Of a stretch of DNA of 64,000 nt, positions 27,727 through 35,015 are shown in pieces. The first letter of the stretch is position 1. Each line of letters opens with the position of its first letter. Below the pieces are notes generated by a model, which saw nothing but the letters and a program-made list of their open reading frames with translations, was not told the origin of the DNA and made no database searches. The DNA comes from an uncultured Saprospiraceae bacterium (GTDB lineage: Bacteria; Bacteroidota; Bacteroidia; Chitinophagales; Saprospiraceae). The stretch is taken from NCBI GenBank assembly GCA_964442355.1, contig CAYTZS010000002.1:10775-74774 (forward strand), given 5' to 3'. The translations under genes were made by a program, and so were the position numbers.

Positions 27727-27811
27727 TTTTTTAATTGGGTTTAGAAGGTTTAGAGGGGTTTAGAGGGTTTAGAAGGGTCATCGTTAAACCTTCTAAACTT
27801 TCTAAACCCCT
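27727..27811. repeat. GGTTTAGRRGG-word hairpin, copy 3 of 4
   Basis: GGGTTTAGAAGGTTTAGAGGGGTTTAGAGGGTTTAGAAGGG ... TAAACCTTCTAAACTTTCTAAACCCCTTCTAAACCTC. It lies just upstream of the NIPSNAP gene start. Confidence 0.8.
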
Positions 27812-28095
27812 TCTAAACCTCATCACCAAATCGCCCCCAAAATAGGAGGTTATTTGGCAAAAGAAACAACATTGACAAAAGCTTACCCCGTGTGGCCAAA
27901 CCCCAATTCTTTGGTGCTGCATTTTTAATAAAACCTTAACCCATTTTTATAAATCCAAGAGCGGGGGTAATGCGGTATATCAACTGTCTAGTTGATTAAA
28001 TTCACTACCGTCTTTTGAACATAAACCCGGTGCAAAACTTTACTTTTATACGGCCTATGCGGAGAAAAACTACCTGACCAAACCACTTGTCAGCC

Positions 28096-31000
28096 ATGCG
28101 AAAATCAATCGCCACCCTTGCCGCATTCGCAGTCATCCTTTGCTGCGCAATCCCTGTTGAAGCACAATATTTTGGCAGAAACAAGCCCAAGTACGAAGAC
28201 TTCAACTTCAAGGTGCTGCAAACGCCGCACTACCAGATTTACCATTACCTGAACAACCCGGAACTGGAGCGGGCACTGGCCAACCAAGCCGAGCATTGGT
28301 ACACGCTTCACCAAGCCGTGCTGGCGGACACCTTTGCCGAGCGCAACCCGCTGCTGTTTTACAACGACCATGCAGACTTCCAGCAAACGAACGCCATTGG
28401 CGGTGAAATCAACATCGGCACGGGCGGGGTGACGGAGGCGCTGAAAAACCGGGTGGTGCTGCCCATTGCCATGTCCAACGAGCAGACCAAGCACGTGCTG
28501 GGCCACGAGCTGGTACACGCCTTCCAGTACAACATGGTGCTCAACGGCGACAGCACTTCCATGCGCAACCTCGGCAACCTCCCACTCTGGATGGTGGAGG
28601 GCCTCGCCGAGTACCTCTCCATTGGTCGCACGGACGCCAACACCGCCCTCTGGATGCGGGATGCCGTGCTCAACGACCGAGTGCCCACCCTGCGTGACCT
28701 CGACAGGCCCGAGTTTTTTCCGTACCGATGGGGGCAAACCTTCTGGGCATTCGTGACCGGGCTAAAAGGCGACGACATCATCCAACCGCTGTTCATGACC
28801 ACGGCACGGGAGGGCTTCGATGTGGCCTGCGTGAAGGTGCTGGGCATGAAGGAAAAAGAACTCTCCAAGCTTTGGGTGAGCGCCATCAAGGACTACTACG
28901 GCCCTTATTTGGGCGACAAAAAAGAGCGCTTCGTGGGCCGCCAACTCATCGGCAAAGACCAAACACGGGAGGGCCGCTACAACATCGCCCCGGTGTTGAG
29001 TCCCAACGGCAAGTACATCGCTTTCCTCTCGGAAAAAGACATCTTCGGCATTGACCTGTACCTCGGCGATGCCGTGACGGGCAAGGTGCTGCGCAAAATC
29101 CACAGCAGCACCAGAGAAAGCCACCTTGACGACCTGAGCTTTATCGAGAACGCCGGAACTTGGTCGCCCGACAGCCGTGAAATCGTTTTCGTGGCCGTGA
29201 GCAAGGGCAACAACGTGTTGGTCATCAAGGACTTGGACGGCAAGCACAAGGAGAGTTTTGAAATACCCGGTGTGCCCGCTTTCAGCAATCCCGCTTGGTC
29301 GCCAGATGGCCGCAGCATCGTGGTGGCTGGGCTGGTGAACGGGCAGGTTGACCTCTTTCAAATCCAATTGTCCAGCAAAAAACTGACGCAACTGACCAAC
29401 GACCGTTTCGCCGAGATGCAGCCTGCTTGGTCGGCGGATGGCAGCCAGTTGGTGTTTGCTACCGACCAATTGAGCTTTGAACGGGGAGCAACCAAATGGA
29501 CGTTCAACCTCGCCATTCGGGACATGGCATCGGGCATCACTACCGTCAACGAGTTCTTCTACGGCGCCGACAACCTCAATCCCGTCTGGGACAACGACGG
29601 CAACATCCTCTTCCTCAGCGACCGGGACGGTTTCCGCAACCTCTACCGCTTCGAACCCGCCACGGGCAAGCTGTTCCAAATGACCGACCTGCTCACGGGC
29701 ATCAGCGGCATCACGCCCTATGCCCCGGCGCTCTCGGCTTCGACGAAAGAGACCCGTGACCGCATCGTTTTTACGCATTATTTCAACGGTGGCTACCGGA
29801 TTTACAGGGCAAAATCGGAGGACTTCATCAACCGGGAAGTGGCCGCTGACGCCGTGGACATGAAGCCTGCGCAGCTCATCAAGACCAACCGCATGGCCCC
29901 CGATTTTGTGAGCAGCAACTTGGCGCAACTGAACAAGCTGCCCTCGCTGCCCGATTCGTCGTTGCAGGCGGTGGCTTACAGGCCCCATTTCAAACTGGAC
30001 TACATCGCAGGTGGCGGCGGTGTGGGCGTGGGCATCGGCAATACTTACGGCGGCCCGGTGTCAGGTATTGGTGGGGGCGTTGACCTTATTTTTGGCGACA
30101 TCGTTGGCGACCACCAAGTTTATTCCAGCATCTTCCTGAACGGCGAGGTATTAGATGCCGGGTTCTCCGCCGCCTATCTCAACCGCAAAAACCGCTTTGG
30201 TTGGGGCGTTGGCCTATCGCATTTGCCTTACCAAAGTGGGCGCTCTGGCTACGTTGGCCTCGATACGCTGCCGATTAAGGATTCGCCCGACCTGTTGTTT
30301 GACCACTATGTTTTTGACCAAATCAGGACCTTTGAAGAAAAGCTCAGCGTCTTTGGGGAGTACCCTTTTTCCAAGACCCTGCGCATCGAGGGCAGCGGTT
30401 CATTTGCATTCTACAACAACCGCATTGACCGCAACCAACTGTACTATGATGCTTTCGGCAACCTGGTTTACCAAGACCGAGAGAAAATCAGCGAAAGGGA
30501 AGCAGGGCTAAACCTCTTTGAGGGAAAACTCGGCACGGCATCCGTGGGCCTTGTTGGTGACAATTCCTACTTTGGCATTGCCTCGCCCACCAAGGGCTAC
30601 CGTTTCCGGTTGAGCGGCGAGCAGTATTTTGGCGACATCAAACTGACGAACCTCACTGCCGACGTCCGCAAATACTTCTTCGTGAAGCCTTTCACCTTTG
30701 CCGTGCGGGCCATGCACCAAGGCCGCTATGGCACCGATGCCAACGCCTTTTACAACCTTTACCTCGGCTACCCGTGGTACATGCGGGGCTACGGCTTCAG
30801 TGATTCGTATGAGATTCTGGAGAAAAACGGCCGTTCTGTGGACGACCTTTTTGGCAGCAAGATGCTGCTCGCCAACGCCGAGGTGCGTATCCCGCTCTCC
30901 GGCCCAGAACAATTGGCGCTGCTGAAGTCCAGGGTCTTGTTTACCGAGCTGTCCTTCTTCACCGATGGCGGCTACGCATGGGATGTCTTCGAAAAACCTA

Positions 31001-31164
31001 CGGAAGGCAACCTGACCCAATTCGATTTCAAGCCACTGTTCAGTGCGGGCGTGTCGCTGCGCATCAACCTCTTCGGGGCGCTGGTGCTGGAACCCTACTA
31101 TGCTTGGCCGCTGCTGAAGGATACGCATGGCAGCTTTGGGTTGAACATTGTGCCGGGATGGTGA
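28096..31164 (+). CDS. outer-membrane fusion protein: HExxH peptidase-like domain + PD40/TolB-type beta-propeller repeats + C-terminal Omp85/surface-antigen-like beta-barrel
   Basis: Trimmed to the ATG at 28096, with a signal peptide. It has HELVH at GHELVHAFQ. PD40-like repeats are SPNGKYIAF, WSPDSREIVF, WSPDGRSIVV and WSADGSQLVF. The C-terminal third has alternating hydrophobic strands and ends in ...NIVPGW. Confidence 0.7.
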   Translation: MRKSIATLAAFAVILCCAIPVEAQYFGRNKPKYEDFNFKVLQTPHYQIYHYLNNPELERALANQAEHWYTLHQAVLADTFAERNPLLFYNDHADFQQTNAIGGEINIGTGGVTEALKNRVVLPIAMSNEQTKHVLGHELVHAFQYNMVLNGDSTSMRNLGNLPLWMVEGLAEYLSIGRTDANTALWMRDAVLNDRVPTLRDLDRPEFFPYRWGQTFWAFVTGLKGDDIIQPLFMTTAREGFDVACVKVLGMKEKELSKLWVSAIKDYYGPYLGDKKERFVGRQLIGKDQTREGRYNIAPVLSPNGKYIAFLSEKDIFGIDLYLGDAVTGKVLRKIHSSTRESHLDDLSFIENAGTWSPDSREIVFVAVSKGNNVLVIKDLDGKHKESFEIPGVPAFSNPAWSPDGRSIVVAGLVNGQVDLFQIQLSSKKLTQLTNDRFAEMQPAWSADGSQLVFATDQLSFERGATKWTFNLAIRDMASGITTVNEFFYGADNLNPVWDNDGNILFLSDRDGFRNLYRFEPATGKLFQMTDLLTGISGITPYAPALSASTKETRDRIVFTHYFNGGYRIYRAKSEDFINREVAADAVDMKPAQLIKTNRMAPDFVSSNLAQLNKLPSLPDSSLQAVAYRPHFKLDYIAGGGGVGVGIGNTYGGPVSGIGGGVDLIFGDIVGDHQVYSSIFLNGEVLDAGFSAAYLNRKNRFGWGVGLSHLPYQSGRSGYVGLDTLPIKDSPDLLFDHYVFDQIRTFEEKLSVFGEYPFSKTLRIEGSGSFAFYNNRIDRNQLYYDAFGNLVYQDREKISEREAGLNLFEGKLGTASVGLVGDNSYFGIASPTKGYRFRLSGEQYFGDIKLTNLTADVRKYFFVKPFTFAVRAMHQGRYGTDANAFYNLYLGYPWYMRGYGFSDSYEILEKNGRSVDDLFGSKMLLANAEVRIPLSGPEQLALLKSRVLFTELSFFTDGGYAWDVFEKPTEGNLTQFDFKPLFSAGVSLRINLFGALVLEPYYAWPLLKDTHGSFGLNIVPGW

Positions 31165-31300
31165 GGATAGTGATGAGAGATGAGTGATGAGGGATGAGTG
31201 GGCTGTAGGTTGTTGGCAGCCAATAGCCAACGACCAACAGCTAACAACCAATAATGACCAATGACACCAACAACCGATGACCAACATCATTGACCACGGC
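31165..31300. repeat. low-complexity word tract (GATGAGNG words, then GTTGGC/CCAATAGCCAAC words), copy 2 of the CCAATAGCC family
   Basis: GAGGATAGTGATGAGAGATGAGTGATGAGGGATGAGTGGGCTGTAGGTTGTTGGCAGCCAATAGCCAACGACCAACAGCTAACAACCAATAATGACCAATGACACCAACAACCGATGACCAAC. Confidence 0.7.
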
Positions 31301-31490: not shown

Positions 31491-31578
31491 GGAGGGTTTA
31501 GAGGGTTTAGGAAGTTTAGGAGGTTTAGTATTAAACCCATCTAAACCCTCTAAACCTCCTAAACCCTCTAAACCTTTT
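31491..31578. repeat. GGTTTAGRRGG-word hairpin, copy 4 of 4
   Basis: GGAGGGTTTAGAGGGTTTAGGAAGTTTAGGAGGTTTAGTA ... TTAAACCCATCTAAACCCTCTAAACCTCCTAAACCCTCTAAACC. Confidence 0.8.
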
Positions 31579-31809: not shown

Positions 31810-32427
31810 TCACAGTGCCCTCACCAGCAACTGCACCGGAGGACTCGTCTTCTTGTTTTTCTTGCCATATATTTCCAAGATATTTGGGCCACTGGGCAGG
31901 TTCGTCACTTCAATCAGCAGCGTATCGAATGCATCGTGCATCACAAAATCGTCGCCCACTTTGAGCTTGACGATGAAGAAAGAACTGCCTGCCCGTTCGT
32001 CAATGCGGATGATAGCCGAACCTATCACCGAGCCTACGCTTATAAAAGTAGCACTGAACTCGCTTGGGTCTATGGGCGTTGACTCCTCCTTGTTCAGCCT
32101 AAAACCACTCAGGCCCGCAATATAGCGGTCGCCATTGGCCACCAGCAGCACATAGTTTGAGAGTGGAAGCAGCTCATTCTTGATAAAATCTGCTTTCCTT
32201 TTTTGCATCAAATTGGTCGTCGTCGTGTTCTTTTCGTTTTCAGGCACCACAGCGTCTTTCAACAAATTCAATGCAGCCGCCAAAGCCAGCATGGTTACTG
32301 GCGGGGCAGTAAATACATCGGCATGGTTGGTCATGCCTTCAAGGACACTTTCGCCATCAGCAATGACGGTTGAAACTGGTGATTTTTCAGTAGGCAAAAT
32401 GATGAAAAGTTTTTTTCTGCGAGCCAT
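31810..32427 (-). CDS. hypothetical protein (orphan, 205 aa)
   Basis: ATG start and no signal peptide. The N-terminal half looks helical (LALAAALNLLKDAV) and the C-terminal half looks beta-rich. I recognise no family. It lies 72 nt downstream of the 21-bp repeat array. Confidence 0.6.
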   Translation of the reverse strand: MARRKKLFIILPTEKSPVSTVIADGESVLEGMTNHADVFTAPPVTMLALAAALNLLKDAVVPENEKNTTTTNLMQKRKADFIKNELLPLSNYVLLVANGDRYIAGLSGFRLNKEESTPIDPSEFSATFISVGSVIGSAIIRIDERAGSSFFIVKLKVGDDFVMHDAFDTLLIEVTNLPSGPNILEIYGKKNKKTSPPVQLLVRAL

Positions 32428-32499: not shown

Positions 32500-32772
32500 C
32501 CAAGTCACGGCAAGCCATTGCCAAGTCATGGCAAGCCCTTTCCAAGTCACGGCAGGCCATTGCCAAGTCATGGCAAGCCCCTTCCAAGTCATGGCAAGCC
32601 CTTTCCAAGTCACGGCAGGCCATTGCCAAGTCATGGCAGGCCATTGCCAAGTCACGGCAAGCCCCTTCCAAGTCACGGCAAGCCCTTTCCAAGTCACGGC
32701 AGGCCATTGCCAAGTCACGGCAGGCCATTGCCAAGTCATGGCAAGCCCCTGCCAAGTCATGGCAGGCTTGTT
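32500..32772. repeat. tandem array of 13 x 21 bp, consensus CCAAGTCAYGGCARGCC(ATTG/CYTT), with no spacers
   Basis: The units were counted directly as 32500-32520, 32521-32541, and so on to 32752-32772. The last unit is degenerate. All six frames are open across the array. Confidence 0.95.
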
Positions 32773-32799: not shown

Positions 32800-32883
32800 C
32801 TTGTCATTGGTGTTCATCGCCATCCGGTTGATGGCGATGGTTTTCTCGAAGATGTTCTTGATGCTGTATTTATACAGCTCATT
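32800..32883 (-). pseudogene. possible 3' stump of a disrupted gene (…NELYKYSIKNIFEKTIAINRMAMNTNDK*)
   Basis: A 28-codon open stretch with native-looking G+C. It starts 1 nt after the nuclease gene's stop codon, and a TAG overlapping that stop closes the frame just upstream. It ends at the TAG at 32799..32797. Confidence 0.25.
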
Positions 32884-32884
32884 G

Positions 32885-34087
32885 TTAGACTAAATATTTT
32901 GTGACGTCAATCATTGAGCCTTTTTCTATTTCAGGCTGAGCAATTAGATATTTATTTTCACGATAGTGAATAACCACATGCCAGTACATTCGGTCTTCAT
33001 TTTCAGTAGTCCAAAAGTTCTTGATTAGAGGTTCAAAATATTTGTATGGAATTAACAGTAAATTGTCTGGAGAGCCGCATCCATAGGCAATATAAGCATT
33101 GTCTAATGTTCTTAAAAATTCATTTTGATGTGGATGGAAAGCAAACCAAAATTTTTCATATTGACCTTGTTTGTGTGGTTTTGAAATTGAACAAATAAGT
33201 CCAGTCCTTTTATCTTTGTCAGTATATGAAATCCTCGTTTGTTTTATAAAGTTGATTTTTATTTTTTCTTGAATTCTTAATAAACATTCTTCGTGAAAAT
33301 TTACTGGAATTGCCTTATCTTCTGGTGATTTTCTCTTTTTCTTATCTGTACGAATTTCTTCTATTTCTTCAATAACGTCATCACCTTCTTCTTCAAGTTG
33401 AAGGTCTTTTGATGTCAAAAAGATAAGCTCAATTAATTTGTCAATGCGAGTGTATTCTCTCGGTTTTAACAGTTCATTGATTTGTTGGATAGTTTTTGTG
33501 TCGTTTAGTGTTTCTTTTAAACTTAAGAGCTTAAGTAAAGAATCGGTGCTTAGCAATCGGATGTCCCAAGCATGCTGCGAGCCACGAATTTGAGCTTCAA
33601 GGTCACCAGTGTCTTGTCTGCCAACTACTATCAATATAGATGATTGAACTTTGTCAATTCTTGCTTGGTCAATTAGTTTTTTTCTGTAATCTGCAATTGT
33701 GTCAAGATTTATTCTGTAGGCATCTGTTGTCTTAACTTCTACAACTAAGCTGTGATTTTCACTTGATGTCCATATGCCATCAAACCCAACATCATTTTGT
33801 TTGCCTCTATAAAGCCCATTTTGAACTGCAAAACCAAGCCGAGTTCCAATTTGATTTATTATATCTTGAAGTGCAAAGCCACCATCATCAAATTTATCTG
33901 TCAAGCAGTTATCTGCAAATTGTTTTAAAAGTGTTGAAGGTACTTGGTCTAAAAGTTCTCTAAATTCAATTGATGTGACATTATTATCCTTGAGCTTTCC
34001 ATCACCAGCAAATGCAAGAATTTGAGAAAGTGATTTTGAACTGAAAGTCCCCTTGCTTTTTGTCCAAATTTCAGATATACTATTCAT
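32885..34087 (-). CDS. orphan PD-(D/E)xK nuclease-fold protein (restriction-endonuclease-like N-terminal domain plus an unassigned C-terminal domain)
   Basis: 400 aa. The motif is D103-x13-E117-V-K119 (VGFDGIWTSSENHSLVVEVKTTD). An acidic/basic linker (EEEGDDVIEEIEEIRTDKKKRK) is followed by a roughly 130-aa C-terminal module. The gene is conspicuously AT-rich relative to its flanks. Confidence 0.65.
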   Translation of the reverse strand: MNSISEIWTKSKGTFSSKSLSQILAFAGDGKLKDNNVTSIEFRELLDQVPSTLLKQFADNCLTDKFDDGGFALQDIINQIGTRLGFAVQNGLYRGKQNDVGFDGIWTSSENHSLVVEVKTTDAYRINLDTIADYRKKLIDQARIDKVQSSILIVVGRQDTGDLEAQIRGSQHAWDIRLLSTDSLLKLLSLKETLNDTKTIQQINELLKPREYTRIDKLIELIFLTSKDLQLEEEGDDVIEEIEEIRTDKKKRKSPEDKAIPVNFHEECLLRIQEKIKINFIKQTRISYTDKDKRTGLICSISKPHKQGQYEKFWFAFHPHQNEFLRTLDNAYIAYGCGSPDNLLLIPYKYFEPLIKNFWTTENEDRMYWHVVIHYRENKYLIAQPEIEKGSMIDVTKYLV

Positions 34088-34448
34088 TTCTTATTGTATT
34101 TATCGTCTTGTATTTGAAGTATAATTTACGCCTTCGCTTGCAACGCAGCCAAACACCACGCCACAAGCCCATCCGGCCATCACCACCAACAACATCACTC
34201 TTATCACTTCAGGAGAAAAACAACAGGTAAGCAAAGTTCCATGTCATTTCTCAGGGTCATTCAATCACAGGTCGTCGGAGCCAACTATTTGGCCATTTGG
34301 TAAGCGCAATATAGCAGCACCGACAAAAGTTCCACAAGTGCCATTTATGGAATGAAATGGTTTTTGAGGGAACGGTAGCAATTGTTTAGGGAACGGTCGA
34401 AAATGGGCATTTGGGTGTTGATTGTTAGCCGTTGGTTTTTGGAGTAGG

Positions 34449-34910
34449 TTATGGGTTATTTGTCCGAATATGGGTCTCCAGCCTCATTTTCAAAATCGGA
34501 TAGTCCTTCCCTTCGCTGTCTTTATCGGTTCTGTCGTATGGCACAAACCCCATTTTGGTATAAAAATCAACAGCATGTTGATTTTGCTCGTTTACGTCCA
34601 CTTTGTCGGCTTTCAATTCATTGATTGCAAAATTGATTAACCTCCTACCAAGCCCTTGACCAATATGTTCGGGCGACAAGAATAGCATTTCAATTTTATG
34701 GTCTGCGATGCCGATGAAGCCAATCACCCCATCATCTTCCGTCAAACAAAATACTTGGAAGGCATTGAAGTCAATGTCAATCACAATATTTTTAAAATAG
34801 TCAATGTCAGATGGTGCTAAAAAATGGTGGGTGGCACGAACGGATTTTTCCCAGACTGCAATCAGTTGTTCTTTAAATCCATCGTGGTAGGGTTGTATTT
34901 CGATTTTCAT
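34449..34910 (-). CDS. GNAT-family N-acetyltransferase
   Basis: Trimmed to the ATG at 34910 (MKIEIQPYHDGFKEQLIAVW). It has the acetyl-CoA loop HIGQGLGRRLINFAI (Q/RxxGxG/A). Confidence 0.8.
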   Translation of the reverse strand: MKIEIQPYHDGFKEQLIAVWEKSVRATHHFLAPSDIDYFKNIVIDIDFNAFQVFCLTEDDGVIGFIGIADHKIEMLFLSPEHIGQGLGRRLINFAINELKADKVDVNEQNQHAVDFYTKMGFVPYDRTDKDSEGKDYPILKMRLETHIRTNNP

Positions 34911-35015
34911 ATCATCTTGTTTTAATGGATGAATGTCATTAATCCCTTCCTGAAATACTTGCACCTCTTGAGTATAAAACACGTAAAAATAGAAGGCTTT
35001 TCCAAGAACGAACAA

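Follow-up and report, generated by a model that had tools for sequence, protein, structure and literature searches.

A recently acquired, solitary gene of a Saprospiraceae bacterium encodes a member of a large unnamed family of predicted PD-(D/E)xK nucleases

What is the role of an AT-rich gene that stands among much GC-richer neighbors, and how did it reach its place? This question is raised by the gene located at positions 32885..34087, on the reverse (-) strand, of a 64,000-nucleotide stretch of contig CAYTZS010000002.1 from an uncultured Saprospiraceae bacterium; this whole stretch is referred to below as the window. A preliminary description, made from the letters of the window, had read it as an orphan nuclease gene of the PD-(D/E)xK type, possibly a defense element, that was acquired horizontally and lacks a restriction-modification (R-M) partner. 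The gene is an intact open reading frame (ORF) of 400 aa in the ORF listing, with an ATG start and with the stop codon at 32885-32887. This listing, the composition, full-length homologues that are 65-87% identical and a ratio of nonsynonymous to synonymous substitution (dN/dS) of ≤0.08 all describe a complete gene for a two-domain protein of a nuclease family. The contrast in composition that had been seen by eye was confirmed by measurement. The sliding-window G+C lies at 0.30-0.37 over the gene and at 0.55-0.63 over the genes on either side, and the gene as a whole has a G+C of 0.33 and a G+C at third codon positions (GC3) of 0.24, as against 57-59% and 0.71-0.76, respectively, for the native flanking genes (in GC3, the PD40/beta-barrel gene has 0.74, the sortilin/BNR-like gene has 0.76 and the two genes that follow have 0.71-0.72). 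The AT-rich block spans approximately 32880-34135, i.e., the ORF plus ~45 bp upstream of the ATG. On the basis of this block, the 5′ leader (34088..34135, - strand) is the presumed promoter and ribosome-binding region; a scan of the leader with the sigma-70 consensus is uninformative for Bacteroidota.

To which family does the protein belong? At 90% identity, 3,872 sequence clusters match it. The best 120 of these 3,872 clusters are 65-87% identical to the window protein and full-length (392-424 aa), except for three shorter partial sequences, and every one of these 120 is unnamed or annotated as "hypothetical". An exhaustive search of 50%-identity representatives returned 1,264 clusters with E ≤1e-3, 328 of them with E ≤1e-30, and since almost all of the members are ~400 aa long, the two-domain architecture is fixed in the family. 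The single protein gave no credible match with Pfam, NCBIfam, PADLOC or PHROGs, so that the PADLOC search proposed in the preliminary description, once run, matched no defense model to the nuclease protein; the lone NCBIfam line, TIGR04472, reached 14 bits for a cutoff of 240 and was discarded as noise. All 115 family members of a diverse alignment were likewise without a match in Pfam, and PDB sequences searched with the protein and with the family profile gave no credible match. Judged by its sequence, the predicted nuclease is thus a member of a large, widespread, unnamed and uncharacterized family.

The conservation figures were obtained from the alignment of 115 diverse homologues. The catalytic motif D103-x13-E117-x-K119 (GFDGIWTSSENHSLVVEVK; 33731..33781, - strand) retains D103 in 114 of the 115, E117 also in 114 and K119 in 112, and because the three residues are 99%, 99% and 97% conserved, the motif is not a chance match. 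Outside this triad, a set of residues that comprises D75, N78, G104, W106, Q166, R168, G169, S170 and R177 is, together with D103, E117 and K119, 95-100% conserved (Q74 98%, D75 98% and N78 100%). In the C-terminal part just S302, K/R303, W314, C337, P347, T/S361 and H370 are retained as conserved positions. The charged linker between the two parts differs among the homologues both in length and in sequence, and the window protein has all of the residues that are at least 80% conserved in the family.

A full-length AlphaFold2 model built from the family alignment has a mean predicted local distance difference test score (pLDDT) of 89.7 and a predicted template modeling score (pTM) of 0.85. The model and the conservation delimit an N-terminal helical region (residues 1-83; 33839..34087, - strand), with helices at 4-10, 12-17, 20-25, 37-46, 51-63 and 69-83 (pLDDT 86-98), that carries a conserved AGDGKLxD loop (G28, G30 and L32) and the helix of Q74, D75 and N78. 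The catalytic core follows (residues 84-180; 33548..33838, - strand), and it is delimited by the model, by Foldseek and by a conservation of at least 95%; it has strands at 87-90, 104-107, 113-119, 149-155 and 176-180, and it includes the QIRGS motif (Q166, R168, G169 and S170) and R177. D103 is placed at strand 104-107, and E117-x-K119 ends strand 113-119, with a model pLDDT of ~90-96. In the model, a helical connector (residues 181-245, with helices at 181-193, 197-207 and 216-245 and with conserved P209, E211, T213 and D216) leads into an acidic/basic linker (residues ~241-261), both within 33305..33547 on the - strand, and the pLDDT of the linker falls below 50 at 241-243, 248-250 and 256-259.

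When the N-terminal half was compared with the PDB by Foldseek, the matches were weak (E 0.02-0.2), and nearly all of the best ones have the restriction-endonuclease fold. The matches include EcoO109I, PspGI, SPARDA DREN, DpnI, NucS/EndoMS, the LlaBIII nuclease domain and Hjc. Among predicted viral structures, the top match was a "restriction endonuclease" (E 4.9e-5). The protein thus combines an alpha/beta core, the D...(D/E)-x-K residues on consecutive strands and weak-scoring neighbors of the same fold, and according to the model and the conserved motif it is a member of the PD-(D/E)xK superfamily. This part of the preliminary description, i.e., the D103-x13-E117-x-K119 core and the PD-(D/E)xK fold, was therefore upheld by the 97-99% conserved triad, by the model and by Foldseek. 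The subclass of the nuclease is left unassigned because the structural matches are weak.

The C-terminal module, ~130 aa in the preliminary description and left unassigned there, is indeed a separate compact domain (residues 262-400, ~140 aa; 32888..33304, - strand), although it can now be likened to a known fold. Modeled alone, this alpha/beta domain has a pLDDT of 97.2 and a pTM of 0.90. Its best Foldseek match in the PDB is SPARDA DREN (E 6e-3, probability 0.99, template modeling (TM) score 0.40), and the further matches, Hjc, DpnI, RecU, D212, PvuII, EcoRV and I-Ssp6803I, all have the PD-(D/E)xK fold. In the 115 homologues, neither an acidic triad nor a cluster of Cys/His residues is conserved in the domain. 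The most fitting description of the C-terminal module is that of a second nuclease-like fold that is catalytically degenerate, an assignment for which the weak structural scores are the sole basis. The Foldseek comparison that had been proposed for a model of both domains returned, for each half, weak matches, of which nearly all of the best have the restriction-endonuclease fold. Two further candidates were discarded at this point. A zinc site formed by C299, H318, C337 and H370 was rejected, given that C299 is conserved in 57% and H318 in 64% of the homologues, and an internal duplication was rejected at the sequence level (hhalign probability of the N- versus the C-terminal domain <0.1%).

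How did the gene reach this position? The DNA similarity between the window and its homologous loci (71-79% identity) starts and ends with the ORF, with at most 24 bp in common upstream. The longest extension was observed with a Confluentibacter locus, in which the similarity continues 24 bp upstream of the ATG (to 34111) and then stops. The family gene holds a G+C of 32-35% in hosts with a local G+C of anywhere between 35% and 53%. In a scan of one genome per species with two conserved peptides as search patterns, 176 loci were found in 185,579 species genomes from many phyla; the carriers belong to Bacteroidota, Acidobacteriota, Alpha-, Beta- and Deltaproteobacteria, Firmicutes, Chloroflexota, Nitrospirota, Gemmatimonadota, Spirochaetota, Ignavibacteria, Armatimonadota and others. 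The best reading is that the nuclease gene was acquired horizontally and recently, as a gene-only unit; the foreign composition, the similarity limited to the ORF and the scattered distribution all bear out what had been proposed in this regard. Against six close homologues, the proportion of nonsynonymous differences (pN) is 0.09-0.19 and that of synonymous differences (pS) 0.64-0.77, the synonymous sites being saturated or nearly so, and dN/dS is 0.03-0.08 where it could be computed; because of these low ratios, the family is considered to be under strong purifying selection.

Three Saprospiraceae relatives, in which the sortilin-like protein is 85-90% identical, were used to analyze the insertion site. 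The DNA synteny with the window extends up to the 3′ end of the sortilin-like gene and breaks off precisely there, and beyond this junction each relative (L089, L091 and L093) differs, with a 1,219-aa protein, an IS200-like Y1 transposase, or an AAA_14/DUF4143 protein together with an acetyltransferase. The nuclease gene was not found at this position in any of the three close relatives. Because these relatives carry differing genes in its place, the nuclease gene is located at a junction that varies and is not a conserved feature of the locus. This suggests that the junction at ~35078, the 3′ end of the sortilin/BNR-like gene, is a local hotspot of gene gain and loss. The preliminary description had considered that the gene might prove to be a housekeeping nuclease conserved here, which the break of synteny speaks against; it had also asked whether the interval is empty elsewhere, and in this respect the nuclease gene is indeed missing from the relatives, but the interval is filled with different genes. 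The comparison shows the absence of the gene, and neither the exact boundaries of the insertion nor a clean empty site can be defined from it.

A gene that moves alone might do so for its own benefit. In such an explanation it would be a selfish element, either a toxin or a free-standing gene for a homing-type endonuclease, that aids its own spread or maintenance, and it would account for a transferred unit that consists of the ORF alone without conserved flanks, for a very wide horizontal spread in which the AT-rich composition is kept, and for the toxin-antitoxin genes that are frequent neighbors of the family. The insertion sites of the family, however, are intergenic and unrelated, and they are not inside a conserved gene, an intron or an intein. 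Neither terminal inverted repeats nor target-site duplications were detected around the AT-rich block, no transposase adjoins the nuclease gene in the window, and no conserved small ORF that might encode an immunity protein or an antitoxin adjoins the family gene. In addition, phages and plasmids, which commonly carry homing endonucleases and addiction modules, are nearly devoid of the family: there was no match among 50,697 phages, the 2.9 million viral contigs gave one match, which lies at the very end of its contig, and the 72,556 plasmids gave a single archaeal remnant (26% coverage). We therefore consider a selfish element the least probable of the explanations weighed here.

Does the nuclease work with a partner? 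The genomic context was analyzed at 80 homologous loci, and components of possible cassettes were sought within 6 kb of the nuclease gene. An all-against-all clustering of the ORFs revealed no universal neighbor among the 80 loci, and a conserved partner gene was rejected as a candidate, since no ORF cluster was present in more than 10 of them and the top one, generic and sensor-kinase-like, was found at a variable distance. Unrelated housekeeping genes, toxin-antitoxin genes, integrases and dispersed defense genes make up most of the 143 directly adjacent ORFs, and loci that were inspected one by one agree with this; the commonest adjacent family is Vsr, at 6 loci. A more sensitive search of the 80 loci detected a C5-methyltransferase at 12, Vsr at 9, a GHKL protein (HATPase_c_3...HATPase_c) at 8 and a ~430-aa protein at 7 of them. 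At least one of these cassette components was thus within 6 kb at ~13 of the 80 loci (~15%), and the nuclease gene is solitary at the remaining ~85%.

Where the cassette is present, its usual order is C5-methyltransferase, GHKL protein, ~430-aa protein and Vsr, with the nuclease gene 20-30 bp further; alternatively, the nuclease gene directly precedes the cassette, so that it is always at the cassette edge. In the numbering of the homologous loci, the cassette-linked relatives are L016, L019-L021, L026, L038, L040, L057, L058 and L063. The nuclease gene lies on the same strand 20-30 bp after Vsr in L016, L026, L038, L040 and L058, and directly before the cassette in L020, L021 and L063. L038 and L058 show the full order, from the C5-methyltransferase through the HATPase_c_3...HATPase_c protein, the ~430-aa protein and Vsr to the nuclease. 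Complete cassettes were observed at L038 (830-7182) and also at L058, L019, L020/L021, L063 and L016. Their GHKL protein (~705 aa) has HATPase_c_3 at the N-terminal and HATPase_c at the C-terminal end, and in L020/L021 an EcoRII-N domain for DNA binding is part of it; their ~430-aa protein is unannotated. With the L038 proteins, no match that reached E 1e-3 was obtained for HEF_HK or Response_reg_2 of Pfam. The neighborhood matches published R-M, paraMORC and two-component-like cassettes, in which a variable nuclease slot follows Vsr: Bellieny-Rabelo et al. (2021) reported Vsr downstream of a receiver-like gene, with variable nuclease domains nearby (PMC8011034), and in the R-M neighborhoods of MORC/paraMORC proteins Iyer et al. 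(2008) found an unnamed "novel restriction endonuclease" (NRE) with an E-D-ExK motif (PMC2292703).

The window is different. No methyltransferase is located within ±12 kb of the nuclease gene, and no homologue of the cassette C5-methyltransferase is found in the whole 64 kb, nor are the GHKL, receiver-like or Vsr components. The statement that the gene has no R-M partner nearby hence holds over both distances, and the cassette link is a property of part of the family and not of this locus, because the components are present in relatives and missing from the window.

The recurrent contact with Vsr, a mismatch-repair nickase, raises the possibility of a repair or recombination nuclease that recognizes a mismatch, a structure or a junction, in the manner of NucS/EndoMS, Hjc or RecU, and that has no role in defense. 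The weak Foldseek matches do include these three enzymes, and many solitary copies are located among housekeeping genes (uvrB, lepA and purL-like). But the adjacency to Vsr always occurs together with the methyltransferase cassette, the Pfam models of NucS, Hjc and RecU were without a match, and the distribution is sporadic, only 176 of 185,579 species genomes having matched the two search patterns. The foreign composition, an insertion site that is different in each lineage and the absence of the gene from this site in close relatives also argue against such a function, which we regard as very unlikely.

The contact with methyltransferase genes could also mean that the protein is a conventional, sequence-specific type II restriction endonuclease, whose cognate methyltransferase would be encoded elsewhere in the genome, outside the window. 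There is a weak structural likeness to the type IIP enzymes EcoO109I, PspGI and NgoMIV, and in some loci the nuclease gene follows the methyltransferase (M) and Vsr (V) genes, as the restriction (R) genes of 5-methylcytosine (m5C) systems do. Between cassettes, however, the nucleases are 42-58% identical, whereas the neighboring methyltransferases are 23-42% identical, i.e., little beyond the catalytic core, and because a cognate enzyme is expected to diverge together with its methyltransferase, the type II reading is unlikely. Furthermore, the L016 cassette already has its own NgoFVII-type (type II) enzyme beside the methyltransferase, most loci are without any methyltransferase within 6 kb, none of the REBASE-derived type II models of PADLOC or Pfam fits the protein, and an unlinked R gene that moved alone between phyla would kill on arrival. 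Taken together, we give this alternative hardly any weight.

More serious is the possibility that the nuclease is a generic effector that works just with the GHKL/receiver-like (paraMORC-type) R-M cassettes, in the way that MutH, a latent nuclease, is switched on by MutL, in which case the solitary copies would be orphaned modules, either inactive by themselves or reliant on partner proteins from elsewhere in the genome. The tight, same-strand placement 20-30 bp after Vsr, or directly before the cassette, is what would be expected of such an effector. So are the dispersal of the cassette-linked members among solitary ones over the whole family tree and the conservation of a nuclease next to methyltransferases that vary. 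The published cassettes have an interchangeable nuclease slot (PMC8011034), and the analogy of GHKL ATPases that drive separate restriction-fold nucleases has been discussed (PMC2292703). On the other side, no component was found within 6 kb at ~85% of the loci or anywhere in the 64-kb window, the solitary copies show the widest spread, and they are intact and full-length with a dN/dS of ≤0.08, which is unexpected for useless orphans. This explanation is unlikely in our view, though it deserves more weight than the other alternatives.

We thus favor, at about even chances, a stand-alone restriction-type defense nuclease, metal-dependent and of the PD-(D/E)xK superfamily. The intact ORF of foreign composition, the conserved active site, the purifying selection, the mostly solitary occurrence and the scattered chromosomal sites are in keeping with it. 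That such a nuclease would be modification-dependent, as the type IV enzymes are, is a plausible but tentative addition that we judge less probable than the stand-alone role itself. In the proposed mechanism, a Saprospiraceae-type host would have gained the nuclease gene recently by horizontal transfer. The N-terminal domain would cut DNA in a metal-dependent manner through D75, D103, E117 and K119 (Q166, R168, S170 and R177 also belong to the near-invariant set), and the C-terminal domain would supply target recognition or DNA binding, dimerization or oligomerization, or autoinhibition and gating. The cue that distinguishes self from non-self would most likely be a generic property of the incoming DNA, e.g., a base modification that the host lacks, or else activation by a partner or a trigger. 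Discrimination is most likely not achieved by matching sequence-specific methylation, because there is no adjoining cognate methyltransferase and the methyltransferases of the relatives are highly divergent. In ~15% of the relatives, the same protein would act as the nuclease module at the edge of the C5-methyltransferase/GHKL-ATPase/receiver-like/Vsr cassettes. From its gene contexts, the protein looks like a generic nuclease module, solitary in the majority of cases or placed at a methyltransferase/GHKL cassette edge. A bolder version, which we put forward as a rather doubtful one, is a new, widespread single-protein system of restriction or defense in which the degenerate C-terminal domain would read a feature of foreign DNA (modification or structure) and license the N-terminal nuclease, and which would double as the cleavage module of the cassettes.

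Several points weigh against a stand-alone defense nuclease of this kind. The nuclease activity is predicted from the sequence and the model, and the structural matches are weak overall (TM 0.2-0.4, E ≥5e-5). No curated defense, restriction or type IV model of PADLOC, Pfam or NCBIfam matches the protein, and no modified-base reader (SRA, EVE/YTH/ASCH, Mrr_N, DUF262 or McrB-N) was recognized in it, the YTH matches having E >1. The enrichment in defense islands is modest, many of the neighbors being plain housekeeping genes. The operon-like contact with active-looking C5-methyltransferases at ~15% of the loci is awkward for a simple m5C-dependent enzyme, and the reading does not account for how a solitary active nuclease would spare its host.

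The immediate surroundings of the gene had been suggested to cooperate with it. At 32500-32764, 120 bp beyond the nuclease stop codon, a 21-bp unit forms a tandem array (12.6 copies with 87-89% matches and a higher-order period of 63 bp), and at 31810-32427 (- strand) there is an ORF of 205 aa whose composition is intermediate (G+C 0.48, GC3 0.56). The cooperation was not borne out: the DNA similarity with other loci stops at the nuclease ORF, the 21-bp repeat is confined to a single site in the window and was found in none of 95 fetched loci, and the 205-aa ORF is near none of the 80 nuclease homologues. The array is open in several frames, yet it looks non-coding. Pfam, PADLOC, NCBIfam and PHROGs gave no match for the 205-aa ORF, which may be a real gene. 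On the other side of the nuclease gene, at 34449-35015 (- strand), a GNAT acetyltransferase (Acetyltransf_10/7/1; the closest NCBIfam model, PRK10514, was below its cutoff) has a G+C of 0.39 and a GC3 of 0.42. It was rejected as a functional partner, since neither this gene nor the 205-aa ORF is near any of the 80 homologues. Because the GNAT gene is compositionally foreign and yet forms a block separate from the nuclease gene, the region from 31.2 to 35.1 kb is considered a mosaic in which three or more pieces differ in composition.

Further features were observed around the PD40/beta-barrel gene (28087-31164, + strand). This gene had been labeled as an Omp85 fusion; Pfam finds PD40 (WD40-like beta-propeller) repeats alone in it (E up to 1e-5), and the Omp85 label was not confirmed. 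Directly after its stop codon there is a 14-bp tandem repeat (AGTGATGAGAGATG, 2.3 copies) at 31169-31200. A ~80-bp palindromic element with GGTTTAG/CTAAACC-type units lies on either side of the gene, at 31494-31574 and 27735-27819, and the same type of element is present in the Saprospiraceae relative L093 (22836-22918). It is probably an intergenic hairpin repeat of the host. The element yields spurious sub-threshold microRNA matches in Rfam, and a search for known RNA families in the island returned just such sub-threshold hairpin artefacts.

What does the analysis add, and which known system does the protein resemble? The family comprises thousands of sequence clusters from many phyla and is strongly conserved, and yet it is without a Pfam, NCBIfam or PADLOC model. 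If it is a defense nuclease, a compact single-gene system is added to those known, and it would make the GHKL/receiver-like methyltransferase cassettes more accessible to experiment; as a modification-dependent enzyme, if it is one, it could serve as an epigenetic reagent. The cassette loci are uncharacterized systems that may merit a study of their own. Solitary restriction-fold nucleases without a known specificity are common, so that the finding is plausible rather than surprising to a specialist.

Several known classes can be set apart from the locus. The gene has no adjoining methyltransferase of matching specificity, as a classical type II R-M system would. Its family occupies intergenic, unrelated sites without terminal repeats or duplications, which does not correspond to a homing endonuclease or a transposable unit, and the absence of a hidden Markov model (HMM) match together with the sporadic distribution separates it from NucS/EndoMS, Hjc and RecU. 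In Sau3AI, the active restriction-fold domain precedes a catalytically dead one, similar in fold, that serves as a second DNA-binding or allosteric site. The predicted pairing of an active with an inactive nuclease-like domain in the window protein resembles this architecture. But the two halves of the nuclease analyzed here are without sequence similarity to each other (hhalign <0.1%), no search gave a MutH/Sau3AI match, and Sau3AI has a cognate methyltransferase.

The C5-methyltransferase/GHKL/receiver-like/Vsr cassettes share with L038 and L058 the gene order in which the nuclease comes last (cf. PMC8011034), whereas the window copy and ~85% of the relatives are without these partners, and the nuclease domains listed for the 2021 cassettes (HNH_2, MvaI_BcnI, EcoRII-C and ParBc) do not include this family (PMC8011034). 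The NRE of Iyer et al. (2008), with its E-D-ExK motif, was compared by its description alone (PMC2292703).

Closer likenesses are found among single proteins. Shedu (SduA) is, like the window protein, a single polypeptide of ~400 aa that combines a PD-(D/E)xK nuclease with a domain for regulation or sensing. Phage defense has been shown for GHKL-fused relatives, the paraMORC3 proteins (PMC12137116). The two differ in that no DUF4263 (PF14082) or PADLOC Shedu match was obtained here at E up to 1, in that the domain order is reversed, with the nuclease first in this family, and in that the defense role of this family is a predicted one. With the single-polypeptide type IV enzymes (Mrr, PvuRts1I/AbaSI and MspJI), the protein shares the solitary nuclease without a cognate methyltransferase, here and at ~85% of the 80 loci, the coupling of a catalytic restriction-fold domain with a distinct non-catalytic one, and the sporadic, horizontally spread and chromosomal distribution. 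Unlike them, it has no Mrr_cat, Mrr_N, SRA, EVE/YTH/ASCH or PADLOC type IV (mREase_IV) match, its second domain is nuclease-like and not a known modified-base reader, and ~15% of its relatives are in operon-like contact with C5-methyltransferases. As for the Mrr class, there was no match with the PF04471 HMM, and Mrr-class domains such as the LlaBIII nuclease and SPARDA DREN are among the weak structural matches (E 0.02-0.1). The gene thus represents an unnamed family of sizeable extent, with a distinctive architecture and a partial GHKL/methyltransferase link, and not a new principle; functionally, it most resembles the single-polypeptide type IV enzymes and single-gene defense nucleases such as Shedu.

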